DNA of 41,676 nt from Marine Group I thaumarchaeote (GTDB lineage: Archaea; Thermoproteota; Nitrososphaeria; Nitrososphaerales; Nitrosopumilaceae), in contig CP054849.1 in the NCBI GenBank assembly GCA_044358425.1, positions 1,012,622-1,054,297 of the forward strand, in the 5' to 3' direction. Below, piece by piece: positions 35,539 to 40,478 of the stretch. Below the pieces are notes generated by a model that saw only the letters and a program-made list of their open reading frames with translations, was not told where the DNA came from and made no database searches. The translations under genes were made by a program, and so were the position numbers. Position 1 is the first letter of the stretch. Every line of letters starts with the position of its first letter.

Positions 35539-38409
35539 ATGGAAATTAACTGGAACCAAATCGAAACCAAATGGCGAGCTAAATGGGATGAGTCAAAAGA
35601 CTTTGAAACAAATCCAAATGAGAAACCAAAAAAATTCATAACAGTTGCATATCCATATCCAAACTCACCACAACATATTGGACACGGAAGAACATACACA
35701 CTAGCTGATGTTCATGCAAGATTTTACCGAATGAGAGGATTCAACGTATTATTCCCAATGGGATTTCATTATACTGGCACACCTGTTTTGGGAATGGCAA
35801 AAAGAATCCAATCTCAAGAAAAAGAAATTCTTGATGGATTACGAAACATCTATCATGTTCCAGAAGAAGATATCAAAACGTTTGTTGAACCAATAAAGAT
35901 TGCAGATTATTTCCATGAAGAAATTAAAGCTGGAATGATTGAAATGGGTTATTCCATTGATTGGAGAAGAGAGTTTACTACAATTGTTCCAGGTTATCAA
36001 AAATTTATTGAATGGCAGATTACAACACTAAAAGAAAATGGAAAAATCATTCAAGGTTCACATCCAGTAGGATGGTGTCCACGTGATCAAAACCCTGTAT
36101 CACAACACGATACAATGGGAGATGTTGAACCAAAAATTGATGACAAGAACCATTTAGTCAAATTCAAGTTTGGTGAATACATATTTCCAGTAACAACACT
36201 TCGTCCTGAAACAATTTTTGGAATTACAAATCTCTGGGTTAATCCAAATACTATTTACAAAAAAATTAAAGCTGATGATGAAAAATGGATTGTTTCAGAA
36301 GAGTGTGCAAAGAAGATAGAATTCTTTGGAAAAGAAATTACAATTGAAGGAGATATTGCAGGAACTGAAATTATTGGGAAATATGCTACAGCATTACACA
36401 ACAATCAAGAGATTCCAATTTTAGAAGCAGAATTTGTAGAGCCTGCAATTGGAACAGGTCTAGTCATGTCAGTTCCAGCCCACGCACCAAAGGATTACCA
36501 GGCATTAATGGATCTCAAGGCTAAAAATCATGAATTAGCCTCAAAAATTGAGCCTATTCCAATTATTTCCACTGAAGGATATGGAGAGATTCCTGCAAAA
36601 GAGATTTGTGAGAAAATGGGAGTGTCAGACCAATCTGACCAAAAATTAGAAGAGGCAACAAATGAGTTATACCTCAAAGAATTCACAGATGGAAAATTAA
36701 ATGACAAATGTGGAGATTTCCAAAATGAGAAAGTTCAGTTTGGACGAAACAAAGTCAGAGACTGGTTAATGGAAAATAAACATCTAGAAAAATTCCCAGT
36801 ACTTGAAAATGCTCCAGTCAAATGTCGTTGTGGAACTGAATGTGTTGTTAAAGTTTTGAACAATCAATGGTTTTTGAATTATGGAGATGAAGAATGGAAA
36901 GAAACTGCTAGAAATTGTTTTGATGAGATGAACATTTTACCAAATAAAATTAGAACAGAATTCAAAGAAGTAATTGATTGGTTGCATGAAAGAGCATGTG
37001 CAAGACAACAAGGATTGGGAACTAATCTACCTTGGGATAAAGATTGGATTGTTGAGAGTTTATCGGACAGTGTAATTTACATGGCATACTATACCATGTC
37101 AAGATTTGTAAATGATGGAACACTAAAACCTGAAAATCTTACAAAAGAATTCTTTGATTTCATTTTACTAGATAAAGGAGATATTTCACTAGCTGTTAAT
37201 ACATCAAAATTATCTGAAGATGTAATTAGTATGGTCAAAAAAGAATTCCAATACTTTTATCCAGTTGACTCTAGACATTCAGGACGGGACCTAGTTCAAA
37301 ATCACTTGTCATTTTTTGTCTTAAATCACGTTGCAATATTTGAGAAAAAATTATGGCCACAAGAAATTGTTGTCAATGGTTCAGTAATGATGGATGGTGC
37401 AAAAATGAGTAAAAGTATGGGAAACATCATTCCACTACGAACTGCAATCAAAGACCATGGAGCAGACCCAATTAGATTAGCAATTATCTCATCAGCAGAG
37501 CTACTTCAAGATGCTGATTTCAATATGGACAGTGTAACTGGCATTCAAAGCAAGCTAGAATCACTACTAGAGGAGTGCAACAGTCTCAAAGCATCAGATG
37601 TAGGGGATTTGGAGGCTGAAGATAGATGGATTTTATCGAAAACTCAAGGCATGATTGCCCAAGTTACAGAAGCTGTAGAGAAAATGAGGCTAAGAGAAGG
37701 ACTCCATGACATACTATTTTCATTTGAATCTGATTTGAGCTGGTATTCAAAGAGAGTCGAGGCTAAAGAAAGAGACAATGTTTCAGGAATATTGCACAAA
37801 ATCAATTCAGCAAGAGTTGCAATGCTATCTCCATTTGCGCCACATATAGCTGAAGAGATGTGGGAAAAATTAGGATATACAGAACTTGCATCAAAATCAG
37901 CATGGCCTAAATTTTCAAAAGAAAATGTTGATGCCACATCAATTCAATCCGAAGAATTGTTAAAATCAACAATTGATGATATTGCAAATATCCTAAAAGT
38001 TACAAAAATTACTCCACAAAAAATTGTAATTTATGTAAACTCTGATGAATTCAAATCTAAAGTTTATAGAAAAATTTTAGGAATTATGGTAGGAGGACAA
38101 AACAATATGGGTGTAGTAATGAAAGAGTTGATTGCAGATACTCAAACTACAGATGCTAAAAAAATGCCAGACTTTATTCAAAAAGTAATCAAAGACTTGC
38201 ATTCAGAATCTGAAGAAATTAAATCAACAAAGTTAGAATCTGAAGAATTTGATGAAAAACAATTCTTGTCTGCAGAGCTATCAAGTATTGGTAAAAAAGA
38301 ATTCGGAGTAGACATTGAAGTGTTTGGTGCAACTGATGGCGATATTTATGATCCTAAAGGCAAAGCCAGACACGCAAGACCATTCAAACCAGCAATACTA
38401 ATTGAATAA
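35539..38409 (+). CDS. leuS: Leucine--tRNA ligase, archaeal type
   Basis: YPYPN..HIGH, TTLRPET and GTGLV editing domain, KMSKS, ARPFKPAILIE. Confidence 0.97.
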   Translation: MEINWNQIETKWRAKWDESKDFETNPNEKPKKFITVAYPYPNSPQHIGHGRTYTLADVHARFYRMRGFNVLFPMGFHYTGTPVLGMAKRIQSQEKEILDGLRNIYHVPEEDIKTFVEPIKIADYFHEEIKAGMIEMGYSIDWRREFTTIVPGYQKFIEWQITTLKENGKIIQGSHPVGWCPRDQNPVSQHDTMGDVEPKIDDKNHLVKFKFGEYIFPVTTLRPETIFGITNLWVNPNTIYKKIKADDEKWIVSEECAKKIEFFGKEITIEGDIAGTEIIGKYATALHNNQEIPILEAEFVEPAIGTGLVMSVPAHAPKDYQALMDLKAKNHELASKIEPIPIISTEGYGEIPAKEICEKMGVSDQSDQKLEEATNELYLKEFTDGKLNDKCGDFQNEKVQFGRNKVRDWLMENKHLEKFPVLENAPVKCRCGTECVVKVLNNQWFLNYGDEEWKETARNCFDEMNILPNKIRTEFKEVIDWLHERACARQQGLGTNLPWDKDWIVESLSDSVIYMAYYTMSRFVNDGTLKPENLTKEFFDFILLDKGDISLAVNTSKLSEDVISMVKKEFQYFYPVDSRHSGRDLVQNHLSFFVLNHVAIFEKKLWPQEIVVNGSVMMDGAKMSKSMGNIIPLRTAIKDHGADPIRLAIISSAELLQDADFNMDSVTGIQSKLESLLEECNSLKASDVGDLEAEDRWILSKTQGMIAQVTEAVEKMRLREGLHDILFSFESDLSWYSKRVEAKERDNVSGILHKINSARVAMLSPFAPHIAEEMWEKLGYTELASKSAWPKFSKENVDATSIQSEELLKSTIDDIANILKVTKITPQKIVIYVNSDEFKSKVYRKILGIMVGGQNNMGVVMKELIADTQTTDAKKMPDFIQKVIKDLHSESEEIKSTKLESEEFDEKQFLSAELSSIGKKEFGVDIEVFGATDGDIYDPKGKARHARPFKPAILIE

Positions 38410-38498
38410 TTAGTGTCGATTTTTGCAAGTCGAGCAGACATAAGCAAACTTTACTTCTGAATCATAAGGAATAGTAACTTTAGCTAGCTGTAGTATAG

Positions 38499-38677
38499 TA
38501 AATCCTCTACAAATCTTACAAATCCCTCGCAACAGTACTGATTGTAAAATTTAGAGTTAACCAGATGTGTCAAAATCTGGTTCGATCAAGGTCATGCGTA
38601 ATTTACCCACGAAATTAACTACTTTTTGCAAAATACACCATATGATTAAAGAAATAATTGGATTTGTATGGGATTTA
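38499..38677. repeat. Imperfect 17-bp terminal inverted repeat enclosing an internal 8-bp hairpin
   Basis: TAAATCCTCTACAAATC (38499-38515) versus the reverse complement of 38661-38677, TAAATCCCATACAAATC, 15/17 identical; AACCAGAT/ATCTGGTT at 38559-38582. Confidence 0.5.
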
Positions 38678-38702
38678 ATTTCAGGGCAATAAAAATAGTA
38701 AA

Positions 38703-39131
38703 TTAATTTTCTATATCTAAATCAACATGAACCTGTTGTATACATGAATTGAGTTGTTCTTCATTACCAATCCAGGTTTCACGACAATTCTGAAGTTGTT
38801 GTTCATATGTATTCCAAAACTCATCGCTTTGAAGGAGAGAATTTTTTCCATCCTTTGCCATTTGATAAACTTCAAGACCTGTAAATCCCTCATATCTTTG
38901 AATCATTTTTTCATGAGATGCTTCAAACCTTTTTAGTTCTTCTTTACATGTGTCTTGAGAATATCCCGATAATTCTTCACATTGTTTAATTTTTTGTTGT
39001 AATTCATAGTATGATAGTTCCAGATTTCTCAACTCCCTTTCTTTAACAAAATCACCATAATCAGCAGTTGCAATTATTCCAATGAATATACCAACAGCAA
39101 CTACAGCAATTACGACTCCAATTGTTCGCAT
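38703..39131 (-). CDS. Orphan protein with an N-terminal membrane anchor and two Cys-paired helical hairpins
   Basis: MRTIGVVIAVVAVGIFIGIIA TM; two C-x10-C pairs within helical Q/E/L-rich sequence. Confidence 0.7.
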   Translation of the reverse strand: MRTIGVVIAVVAVGIFIGIIATADYGDFVKERELRNLELSYYELQQKIKQCEELSGYSQDTCKEELKRFEASHEKMIQRYEGFTGLEVYQMAKDGKNSLLQSDEFWNTYEQQLQNCRETWIGNEEQLNSCIQQVHVDLDIEN

Positions 39132-39180
39132 TACTAGGGCATATTACTCATAGATATTATCCCTTTTCAAAAATAAAGTG

Positions 39181-39188
39181 AAAAAAAA
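39181..39188 (-). terminator. Oligo-T (T8) archaeal terminator after the repeat array
   Basis: A8 on the plus strand at 39181-39188, 9 nt past the last hairpin, followed by further T-rich sequence on the minus strand. Confidence 0.55.
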
Positions 39189-39197
39189 GAAGTTTTT

Positions 39198-39321
39198 GGG
39201 CTTAAGATCATTACCGCGAGGTATTCGATGAGAGCCCATGCCACTTAAGATCAGAAAGTATCCCTTTTCTGATGACAGTGTTCGTCTTAAGATCTCAAAC
39301 GATTGTTTGTAGATGACAGAC
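39198..39321 (-). ncRNA. Putative ncRNA of three tandem hairpin units with conserved boxes
   Basis: CTTAAGATC at 39201, 39244, 39286 and GATGA(G/C)AG at 39227, 39271, 39312; self-complementary 17-18 nt inserts; compensating outer stems; strand inferred from TATA and terminator. Confidence 0.6.
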
Positions 39322-39353
39322 TTGTTCTTGTAACATTACAAAGTCAATTTTGG

Positions 39354-39416
39354 TATATAACCAGCACTCATAATTTCTACTAGTGCTAAAATCCGATCAA
39401 ACTAGTGCCAGAAATT
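39354..39416 (-). promoter_or_regulatory. TATA box with upstream repeated ACTAGTGC sites
   Basis: TTATATA on the minus strand at 39354-39360; ACTAGTGC at 39379 and 39401 (22-bp period). Confidence 0.5.
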
Positions 39417-39464
39417 TAGAATTCAGATAGTCTATTTATTAGAGATAAGAAACTGCAAAGTATC

Positions 39465-40478
39465 TTGAAAATCGCAGTAATGGGAATGGGTGTAGCTGGA
39501 TCATACCTAATGGCCAGACTAAAAGACACAGAACACGAAGTTACAGGATATGAATTAAGATCAGAAGAAGCACATGACTCAATTTGTGCATGGGGAACAA
39601 TCAAACCAGTACTACAAGAATTTTGTAAAAAAACTGGCAGAAATTTTGATGACTTTTTAATTCATGACGGAAAAAGTATGCATGTCAAAATGAATGACAA
39701 TGTTAAATTCGATATCGGATTGCATGGAATGTGTACATATGACAAATTAGCTTTAATCAAAGATTTCATGAAAGATTCAAAAATAATTTACGGCAATCCA
39801 CCAAAAAAAGAAGAGTTAGAAAAAGAATATGACATGATAGTTGATTGTACTGGATTCCACAGAGTATACTTACCAAAGATGAAAGAAGATTTCTTTTTAC
39901 CAACTTATGAATACAAAGTAGAATACGAAAACGGAGTTCCATACGATGACTTTTACATTGAACCATTTCCAGGAATGTCTGGATACTTTTGGTATTTCCC
40001 ACTAGGTGAAAAATGGGCACATATTGGAGCAGGAGATTACAACAAAAATCACATTAAAGCAACAGATGCATTTCTAAAAAAACATGGAGGCAAAGTTGTC
40101 AAAACTAAAGGCCGTCCAATTAGACTTGCAACACCTGATAGATGCAAACCATACTACTCTGGAAAAGTTGTAGGAGTTGGCGAATCAATTGGTACAGTTT
40201 ATGCTCTACTTGGTGAAGGAATCATCCCATCCATGCAGTGTGTAGATATCTTTGTAGAAAACATGCATGACTTTGCAGCATATGAAAAAGCAGTTGAAAA
40301 ACATTACAAAGTGTATGCCAAAGTTTTCAATTTTGTCCGAGCAAAAATTCACAAAGACTTTAACTTTTTGAAAGCATTGCCTGACTTTTTAGCAATCTTC
40401 CGTTACATGAAAAAGAACGAAGACAGATTTGGAATGGATATCAGAATTGCAGATTTGCTAAAAGTTGCTAAAGCCTAA
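39465..40478 (+). CDS. Geranylgeranyl reductase-family FAD oxidoreductase
   Basis: GMGVAG FAD motif, GYFWYFP (YxWxFP), VGESIG...LLGEGI. Confidence 0.8.
   Translation: MKIAVMGMGVAGSYLMARLKDTEHEVTGYELRSEEAHDSICAWGTIKPVLQEFCKKTGRNFDDFLIHDGKSMHVKMNDNVKFDIGLHGMCTYDKLALIKDFMKDSKIIYGNPPKKEELEKEYDMIVDCTGFHRVYLPKMKEDFFLPTYEYKVEYENGVPYDDFYIEPFPGMSGYFWYFPLGEKWAHIGAGDYNKNHIKATDAFLKKHGGKVVKTKGRPIRLATPDRCKPYYSGKVVGVGESIGTVYALLGEGIIPSMQCVDIFVENMHDFAAYEKAVEKHYKVYAKVFNFVRAKIHKDFNFLKALPDFLAIFRYMKKNEDRFGMDIRIADLLKVAKA

Follow-up and report, generated by a model that had tools for sequence, protein, structure and literature searches.

The 41,676-nucleotide (nt) window analysed here (positions 1,012,622 to 1,054,297 of contig CP054849.1, assembly GCA_044358425.1, from a Marine Group I thaumarchaeote of the Nitrosopumilaceae) contains an intergenic spacer with three short hairpin units in tandem. 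The spacer is bounded by a 142-amino acid (aa) open reading frame (ORF; 38703-39131, minus strand) and a 337-aa ORF (39465-40478, plus strand). On the minus strand the three units (39321-39284, 39280-39242 and 39237-39198) each place two boxes, CUSUCAUC and GAUCUUAAG, around an insert that pairs with itself and is unrelated to the other two inserts. An earlier reading of the DNA letters (the sequence-only reading) had proposed a stand-alone non-coding RNA here. The features of the array, in window coordinates, are as follows; R1 is a covariance model described below.

39284 to 39321, minus strand: hairpin 1, the 5'-most unit, GU-CUGUCAUC-insert-GAUCUUAAG-AC; R1 score 53.7 bits
39242 to 39280, minus strand: hairpin 2, CA-CUGUCAUC-insert-GAUCUUAAG-UG; R1 score 47.6 bits
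39198 to 39237, minus strand: hairpin 3, GGG-CUCUCAUC-insert-GAUCUUAAG-CCC; R1 score 46.0 bits
39181 to 39188, minus strand: run of eight U (U8), a candidate archaeal terminator read in the sequence
39181 to 39330, minus strand: predicted RNA of ~150 nt, its 5' end taken from TATA geometry and its 3' end from the U8 run
39353 to 39360, minus strand: TATA-like box TTATATAC, which precedes the predicted start of the RNA (~39330) by 22 nt
39365 to 39386, minus strand: candidate upstream promoter box GCACTAG-TAGAAATTATGAGTG, from regions aligned by eye

On the plus strand the two boxes form the pattern CTTAAGATC-N(12-24)-GATGASAG, which matches at 39201-39234, 39244-39278 and 39286-39319. Three matches against none in 100 dinucleotide-preserving shuffles exclude a chance origin of the units. 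The nine-letter box CTTAAGATC occurs four times in the whole window, three of them in the array, with 0.4 occurrences expected, and no further match to the two-box pattern was found in the rest of the 1.36-Mb genome. The geometry given in the sequence-only reading holds: start-to-start distances are 43 and 42 nt, the outer stems pair as GU/AC, CA/UG and GGG/CCC, and on folding each of the three inserts folds back on itself. The flanking signals it pointed out are present too (TATATA at 39354-39359; A8 on the plus strand, T8 on the minus, at 39181-39188), as is a GCGA loop on the plus strand (39216-39219). The linkers between units are only 3-4 nt long, and the sequences 3' of the units are GAA, GCAU and AAAAC. 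A separate 17-nt direct repeat, 88% identical (AGATATTATCCCTTTTC / AGAAAGTATCCCTTTTC; 39152-39168 and 39253-39269, plus strand), is shared by the hairpin 2 insert and the stretch of spacer immediately before the 142-aa ORF; there are two copies only, and they could be due to chance.

Fifty-eight units were taken from 23 loci. Three exact duplicates and the non-folding L008 (genus g22) were removed, leaving a 54-unit alignment, A1, from which the covariance model R1 was built. The module consists of a helix P1 (7 bp), a 3x4 internal loop and a helix P2 (9 bp, with one bulge). Paired cells make up 81.4% in the 54 units, against 63.2% after shuffling, a value that none of 500 shuffles raised to the observed level, and 31-40% when the 3' partners are slid by one to three columns. 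Changes on both sides occur in 14 of the 16 pairs, and the covariation score is 0.483 versus 0.176. Among the pairs that adjoin the loop, two covary (AU:40/GC:13 and CG:50/AU:4). The fixed pairs beside the loop are C-G and U-A below it and, above it, A-U or G-C, U-A or U-G, and C-G; outside them the helices vary by compensatory substitution. The 5' side of the loop reads GUC in 47 units, CUC in 5 and UUC in 2, and the 3' side CUUA in 53 and UUUA in 1. The first loop position, N, is G, C or U, and the U and A that follow lie opposite each other across the loop. One possible organisation is an N bulge followed by a U-A pair and an asymmetric C/CUU loop; covariation is uninformative on this cross-loop pair because U and A are both invariant.

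The sequence-only reading had named DNA operator sites as the outcome to expect if homologues kept the boxes and lost the pairing, and had called for a covariance model of the units. Run on the relatives, that model finds the module conserved, and by our own pair counts its stems covary. Homologues retain the pairing of both outer stems and inserts through compensatory changes, which argues for structured RNA units and not for operator sites. The alignment leaves us in little doubt that the hairpin is a conserved structured RNA element.

The choice of strand had been offered with a caveat, and the caveat was justified. In the window alone the three hairpins fold on either strand, at -38.2 kcal/mol (z -3.18) on the minus and -41.0 kcal/mol (z -2.87) on the plus. 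The strand is settled as minus by the relatives, not by the window sequence. Summed over the 58 units, the minimum free energy (MFE) is -774 kcal/mol on the minus sense and -647 on the plus, and the common architecture, kept in nearly every unit on the minus sense, loses pairs on the plus. On the minus sense the nine core pairs of the 54 units contain 31 G-U against 5 A-C cells. Upstream, between -48 and -16, the sense strand has a TATA-like word at 17 of 18 arrays and 15 of 20 single-hairpin loci, and the antisense strand at 4/18 and 3/20. A run of at least four T within 25 nt downstream is found on the sense strand in 17/18 arrays and 16/20 singles; the antisense strand of the arrays is nearly as T-rich (15/18), so the T run does not discriminate for arrays. 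By the wobble counts, fold energies and promoter-like elements of the relatives, the sense strand is minus. Two plus-strand readings, a UAA/GAN internal loop and a C-box-like UGAUGA, were dropped because of C-A mismatches on that strand in the relatives.

Arrays were assembled from 20 genomes in three genera (g1, g4 and g15). RNAalifold on the 20 whole arrays recovers the three hairpins, with 32 pairs of which 15 show compensatory change. Outside the boxes, identity is 59% for the corresponding unit across genomes and 32% for different units within one genome, so the array is not a recent or homogenised repeat. These identities indicate that the three units are old and individually conserved across the arrays of the 20 genomes. 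The inserts had been described as unrelated, and within the array they are indeed unlike one another; they are not free to vary, however, as each unit is kept between genomes. No reading frame stays open across the arrays. No transfer RNA (tRNA) gene was found by ARAGORN in 38500-40000, and there is no Rfam tRNA match in 38600-39900.

The MFE fold of 17 of the 20 arrays adds a terminal helix, P0, formed by the 5' leader and the 3' trailer and closing a four-way junction. In 9 of the 20, P0 is a 9-bp helix that at most 1 of 200 shuffles can equal. The 9-bp helix exists in two compensatory variants, three consecutive changes apart (GAAAAGGUG/CACCUUUUC and GAAAAGACA/UGUCUUUUC), and its 3' strand extends into the U tract. 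The corresponding strands in the window are:

39325 to 39329, minus strand: AAGAA, predicted P0 5' strand, weak in the source genome
39187 to 39191, minus strand: UUCUU, predicted P0 3' strand, forming a duplex with 39329-39325

Upstream of the arrays lie promoter-like elements. In the relatives' arrays the TATA-like box reads GGTTAAATAT(C), and from the TATA-like forms TTAAATAT/TTATATAC the predicted start of the array RNA is about 22-25 nt downstream. The same layout is seen at a tRNA-Met gene of the source genome, where 23 nt separate TATATAC from the mature 5' end. The upstream box of the relatives' arrays is ACTAGTAGAAATTATCAGTA, followed after 4 or 5 nt by GGTTAAATAT; in one class of single hairpins (class A, below) it is TAGAAATTATCAGTA, followed after 5 or 6 nt by CTAAATAC. 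A search for the box pattern in five relatives gave matches with 0-1 mismatch that include known hairpin loci. In the source genome the sole other match at one mismatch or fewer falls inside a coding region. The promoters of the signal recognition particle (SRP) RNA, the RNase P RNA and the tRNA genes of that genome have no match, so the box is not a general stable-RNA promoter element. Two direct copies of ACTAGTGC, 22 nt apart (39379-39391 and 39401-39413, plus strand), sit between two promoter elements, the TATA box of the predicted RNA and, for the divergent 337-aa gene, the TATA-like ATTTATTA (39432-39440). In relatives, too, ACTAGT words are conserved. These copies may be sites for a regulator common to both divergent promoters.

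The strict two-box pattern is present in 19 of 200 other Nitrosopumilaceae genomes, with inserts that differ yet pair. A survey of the family with R1, over genomes at least 90% complete and at a cut-off of E<=1e-4, gave matches in 79 of 150 other genomes, 1-11 in each. Eight genera are essentially always positive (g1 16/17, g3 3/3, g4 6/6, g15 5/5, g17 17/17, g20 17/17, g22 8/8 and g27 2/2) and two partly (g11 3/17 and g24 2/9); 14 further genera in the 150-genome sample have no match. Among 127 genomes from the order's remaining families, a single one gave an R1 match, partial and of 24 bits. A pattern scan of 185,579 species' genomes returned at least 120 loci, 80 of which were scored with R1. 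All 12 that are titled Nitrosopumilus, Nitrosarchaeum or Nitrosopumilaceae reach at least 34 bits, and among the 68 with other titles a single one matches, at 25 bits. A viral origin was considered and rejected: of 45 pattern-selected viral-contig loci, 2 reach an R1 E-value below 0.001, at only 24-25 bits. Judged by these matches, the hairpin-RNA family is most likely restricted to part of the Nitrosopumilaceae, marine ammonia-oxidising archaea.

R1 also places the module singly, at several separate loci per genome in the relatives. The source genome has four units in total, the fourth being a single hairpin (G000:C1:451182-451230, plus strand; locus L035, 1501-1549; 35.2 bits) with boxes AUCUCACC and GGUCUUAAU. 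Its neighbours are a plastocyanin-like gene on one side and, on the other, a 127-aa ORF of the opposite strand, whose 3' end it abuts; the ORF has a weak RVT_3/RNase H-like match (E 0.007, below cutoff). The singles fall into classes. Class B, to which the fourth unit belongs, keeps the setting of plastocyanin-like gene and 127-aa ORF in 5 of 5 loci from two genera. Class A singles have varying gene contexts and share ~60 nt of upstream sequence, and class C singles carry variant boxes, CUGUCGYC/GRCCUUAAG. Across these R1 matches the hairpin is a module that exists in single and triple forms.

We propose that the TATA box at 39360-39353 drives transcription of the array by itself, and we regard an independent minus-strand transcript as likely. 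This array RNA would be the three-module member of a family whose single-hairpin paralogues offer one site each. The invariant NUC/CUUA loop would serve as the recognition platform for a protein. Seven near-invariant unpaired nucleotides with fixed flanking pairs, on helices that are otherwise free, are the usual signature of a protein recognition site, and we consider this role for the loop somewhat better than evenly supported. The triple form, closed by P0 in many relatives, would put three copies of the site on one molecule, which could bind three copies of the partner or an oligomer and act as a multivalent scaffold or sequestering RNA. Taken as a whole, a stand-alone ~150-nt minus-strand small RNA (sRNA) that displays one protein-binding site three times has, in our estimate, about an even chance of being right. 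A broader and more tentative idea, which we would not expect to hold in full, is a new class of archaeal small ribonucleoproteins (RNPs), built on a ~45-nt hairpin that a clade of marine ammonia oxidisers, with Nitrosopumilus and Nitrosarchaeum among its named members, would carry in 1-11 copies and whose loop would dock an RNA-binding protein. The triple form with its four-way junction would then hold three protein copies or one trimer, as a regulatory sink or scaffold under a shared promoter element, and would be an archaeal counterpart, in principle, to CsrB- and 7SK-type RNAs.

Several points weigh against the three-site sRNA. An expression check found 24 sequencing runs as Logan contigs, of which 4 RNA runs (metatranscriptomes) from 4 studies were compared. 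Their assembled contigs cover both flanking genes (38713-39110 and 39487-40400), and no contig of the 4 runs lies on 39111-39461. This gap neither supports nor refutes an sRNA, because contigs and standard libraries tend to lose small structured RNAs. Of the stand-alone RNA claimed earlier, the conserved structured element, its minus sense and the promoter- and terminator-like signals have stood, and an RNA contig on the spacer is missing. P0 is marginal in the source genome itself (-2.5 kcal/mol; 42 of 200 shuffles as good). The G-U excess in 23 distinct single-locus hairpins (19 G-U versus 0 A-C) comes from an alignment that was fitted to the model. The TATA-like and T-run counts use motif definitions set after the sequences had been seen, and genomes that are related do not count as independent observations. 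The locus classes have no consistent neighbour gene in common that would point to a partner; the neighbours seen are a FAD/GGR-like protein, a nitroreductase, a plastocyanin-like protein, the 127-aa ORF, phasin-like proteins and AbrB-like + SRPBCC cassettes. Lastly, the upstream box also occurs between a TATA-like word and the likely start of small ORFs that have no hairpin, and is therefore a promoter or regulator element not specific to the RNA.

We infer that the box is a shared regulatory or promoter element that places the hairpin RNAs in a small co-regulated set. Its presence before both hairpin loci and small ORFs suggests a small regulon that would include the hairpin RNAs. The hairpin-less cases seen in relatives (loci L074, L080, L081 and L083) have the box TAGAAATTATCAGTA with TTAAAAC and 7 nt before it. 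The ORFs that follow include a ~30-aa apparently membrane-spanning peptide and a protein with an apparent signal peptide at its start. As to the contigs, 39110 is where those of two studies end and 39487 where those of two studies begin, which hints weakly that neither messenger RNA includes the array. These edges lie near the annotated start codons of the flanking genes (39110; 39462-39487), which fits very short or absent 5' leaders.

The alternative that survives best, an improbable one in our judgement, is that the array is a precursor. A loop-recognising endonuclease would cut it into ~45-nt hairpins equal to the single-hairpin RNAs, in the manner of type III antitoxin or CRISPR repeats. 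The module does exist as ~50-nt single units with promoter-like and U-run signals of their own, and linkers of just 3-4 nt in the window would suit such cutting. The covarying P0, however, closes the three units into one fold in many relatives, which suggests that the intact molecule matters. The units are also individually conserved and not interchangeable, and no nuclease gene is linked to the arrays, whose downstream genes differ.

Recognition between RNAs has a small chance of being the better account. Here the exposed CUUA, set within the self-complementary CUUAAG, would pair with another RNA and sense or hold it, the partners proposed being an anticodon loop reading CUUAAG or the same loop of a second hairpin in a kissing dimer. 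By a numbering rule, the anticodon loop of tRNA-Leu(UAA) would presumably read CUUAAG. CUUA is invariant in 53 of 54 units, CUUAAG is palindromic, and a leucyl-tRNA synthetase gene lies 0.8-1.2 kb off in the source genome (35539-38409) and in four relatives. Yet the last two letters of CUUAAG are paired in P1 and covary with the 5' box (CG:50 and AU:4 at one pair, one C-G at the other), so it is not the palindrome itself that is conserved. Other genes stand between the array and the synthetase gene, which is convergent, and a four-nucleotide contact is weak. Among leucine tRNAs, ARAGORN listed only Leu(GAG) and Leu(UAG).

We give a similarly slight chance to a cis-regulatory leader or small-ligand sensor, that is, riboswitch-like tandem aptamers for the downstream minus-strand gene. 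Of 12 arrays examined, 9 are indeed followed after 41-63 nt by a gene on the same strand, and tandem hairpins with shared conserved nucleotides are known in riboswitches such as guanidine-II and NAD+-I. What speaks against it is that the downstream gene is not conserved: a nitroreductase (PF00881) in 10/12 arrays, and an unrelated 142-aa ORF in the window and one relative. The ORF in the window (38703-39131), described as a small membrane-anchored ORF, has no Pfam match. In relatives a TATA-like AATTAAATTT separates the array from the nitroreductase gene, 22-25 nt from its start codon. Single hairpins occur in varied contexts, and at 13 of 22 such loci a convergent gene ends within 60 nt. In two studies the RNA contigs that cover the 142-aa gene break off within the ORF, at 39110, a weak sign in the same direction.

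Very improbable is an element acting as DNA, whether single-stranded hairpins for a recombinase or transposase (REP/BIME-like or attC-like) or transcription-factor operators: multi-copy hairpins with fixed boxes and a variable stem, at up to 11 matches per genome, would suit it and G-T wobble is tolerated in DNA hairpins too, but the loci are syntenic across genera (the array is divergent from the same FAD/GGR-like gene in 12/12 arrays examined, and the class B gene pair is kept in 5/5), the source genome has no Y1 (HUH) transposase, the 45 pattern-selected viral contigs gave 2 weak R1 matches, operator sites do not need compensatory pairing, and the promoter-like signals keep a fixed orientation.

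Two further observations concern the surroundings. At Nitrosarchaeum-titled loci (L157 809-1000 and 2990-3668; L005; L006), single hairpins are convergent with cassettes that hold an AbrB/SpoVT-like ORF of 63-65 aa. Some of these cassettes add a 149-aa ORF that looks SRPBCC-like by eye, and one 3'-end overlap measures ~30 nt. In the window, the leucyl-tRNA synthetase gene (35539-38409) is followed directly by a convergent 40-aa ORF (38410-38532, minus strand) with CxxC...CxxC cysteines; the small ORF has a weak DUF7351 match (E 0.0008, below cutoff).

Few archaea of the ocean are as abundant as the Nitrosopumilaceae, which perform a key step in nitrogen cycling. Literature searches indicate that almost nothing is in print on their regulatory RNAs. 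The locus offers a covariation-backed RNA family with a simple recognition element, seven near-invariant loop nucleotides and fixed pairs, and its natural one-site and three-site versions make a partner pull-down straightforward. Should the partner be a regulator, the array would give archaea a rare example of an sRNA that binds protein multivalently. If the array RNA is instead, for example, a ligand or RNA sensor, it would still be a new structured RNA class with a clear phylogenetic boundary. The idea of a multi-site protein-binding sRNA is already known from bacteria, and the importance of the present case hinges on the partner. Specialists in the RNA biology of archaea or marine microbes would find in it a new motif that is clean and testable. 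A full-text search found no paper describing this RNA in Nitrosopumilus or ammonia-oxidising archaea. One paper deals with the mapping of transcription start sites on marine Thaumarchaeota contigs (PMC5069720), and its start-site tables may hold loci of this kind; two others (PMC2996960 and PMC12379486) have no relevance to this RNA.

The sequence-only reading had recognised no family, and the Rfam scan agrees: Rfam 15 gave nothing relevant on 39198-39321. With 38600-39900 scanned in E-value mode, the sole match overlapping the array is snR67, whose 15.1 bits compare with a gathering score of 55. At the Rfam gathering threshold, 19 related loci gave a tRNA match only. In E-value mode, the best scores for a relative's array and a class A locus are 21.5 and 15 bits, far below gathering. 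The Rfam H/ACA models gave no match above noise.

Classical archaeal RNA motifs were compared one by one. A K-turn has a tandem of sheared G-A pairs beside a 3-nt bulge, and box C/D sRNAs have a C box RUGAUGA near the 5' end and a D box CUGA near the 3' end. The sense strand of the units has no GA/AG tandem. The plus strand does have UGAUGA, placed toward the 3' side of the unit, and the would-be sheared A sits in a covarying Watson-Crick pair (AU:40, GC:13); the plus-strand C/D reading also fails because the strand tests reject that strand. Archaeal H/ACA sRNAs have a variable guide pocket, a K-turn or K-loop in the upper stem and an ANA box 3' of each hairpin. Like the array, they consist of one to three hairpins, each with an internal loop between lower and upper stem. 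Their pocket, however, is large and variable and holds guides, whereas the loop here is 3x4 nt and invariant. We found no K-turn or K-loop (the A:U beside the loop covaries with G:C) and no consistent ANA box in the window or the relatives. A bulge-helix-bulge has two 3-nt bulges on opposite strands with a 4-bp helix between them. In the module the unpaired stretches are directly opposed, and the next irregularity is a 1-nt bulge on the same (5') strand after 5 bp.

Other look-alikes were set aside on similar grounds. The GAAA 11-nt tetraloop receptor (CCUAAG/UAUGG), the S8 site of 16S helix 21, the C-loop and the 7SK GAUC repeat, all compared by hand against their consensus, do not fit in pairing register. 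For a T-box-like specifier (CUU or UUA plus a purine, with LeuRS nearby) the hairpin is too short and the loop identical in all copies, and the synthetase gene is convergent, not adjacent. A Y RNA of a Ro RNP was rejected, as the TROVE domain PF05731 was not found in the source genome. REP/BIME elements resemble the module as short intergenic hairpins in several copies. They differ in that here there are 1-11 matches per genome at syntenic positions, with all array units in one orientation, and the RAYT link was rejected because PF01797 (Y1/HUH) was not found in the source genome (91% complete), although control genomes gave matches.

Closer in organisation are RNAs made of tandem units. Type III antitoxins (ToxI) are near-identical tandem repeats directly upstream of the toxin gene whose product processes them. 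What they have in common with the array is a tandem series of short RNA units on a single transcript, every unit presumably binding one protein. Here, by contrast, the downstream gene varies and single units occur elsewhere. The antitoxin idea raised earlier does not survive: no toxin gene is conserved downstream, and the units are 32% identical outside the boxes. The guanidine-II (mini-ykkC) and NAD+-I (nadA motif) riboswitches are bacterial 5' leaders with consistent downstream genes, and both are in Rfam. Like the array they have small tandem hairpins with the same few conserved nucleotides on covarying stems; they differ in that the gene context here is inconsistent and there is no Rfam match.

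No described family fits, and every membership test that gave a clear result came out negative. The RNA is for this reason rated as new and, as far as these comparisons reach, is a new family. The kind of mechanism may still prove familiar. The CsrB/RsmZ sRNAs of bacteria carry several hairpins with GGA in their apical loops and have CsrA/RsmA as partner, a bacterial family that is not known from archaea. The motif here is different, an asymmetric internal loop, NUC/CUUA, with no similarity to those RNAs in sequence or Rfam model. The possible working is alike: one RNA presents a short motif repeatedly, and paralogues differ in the number of sites that they offer.

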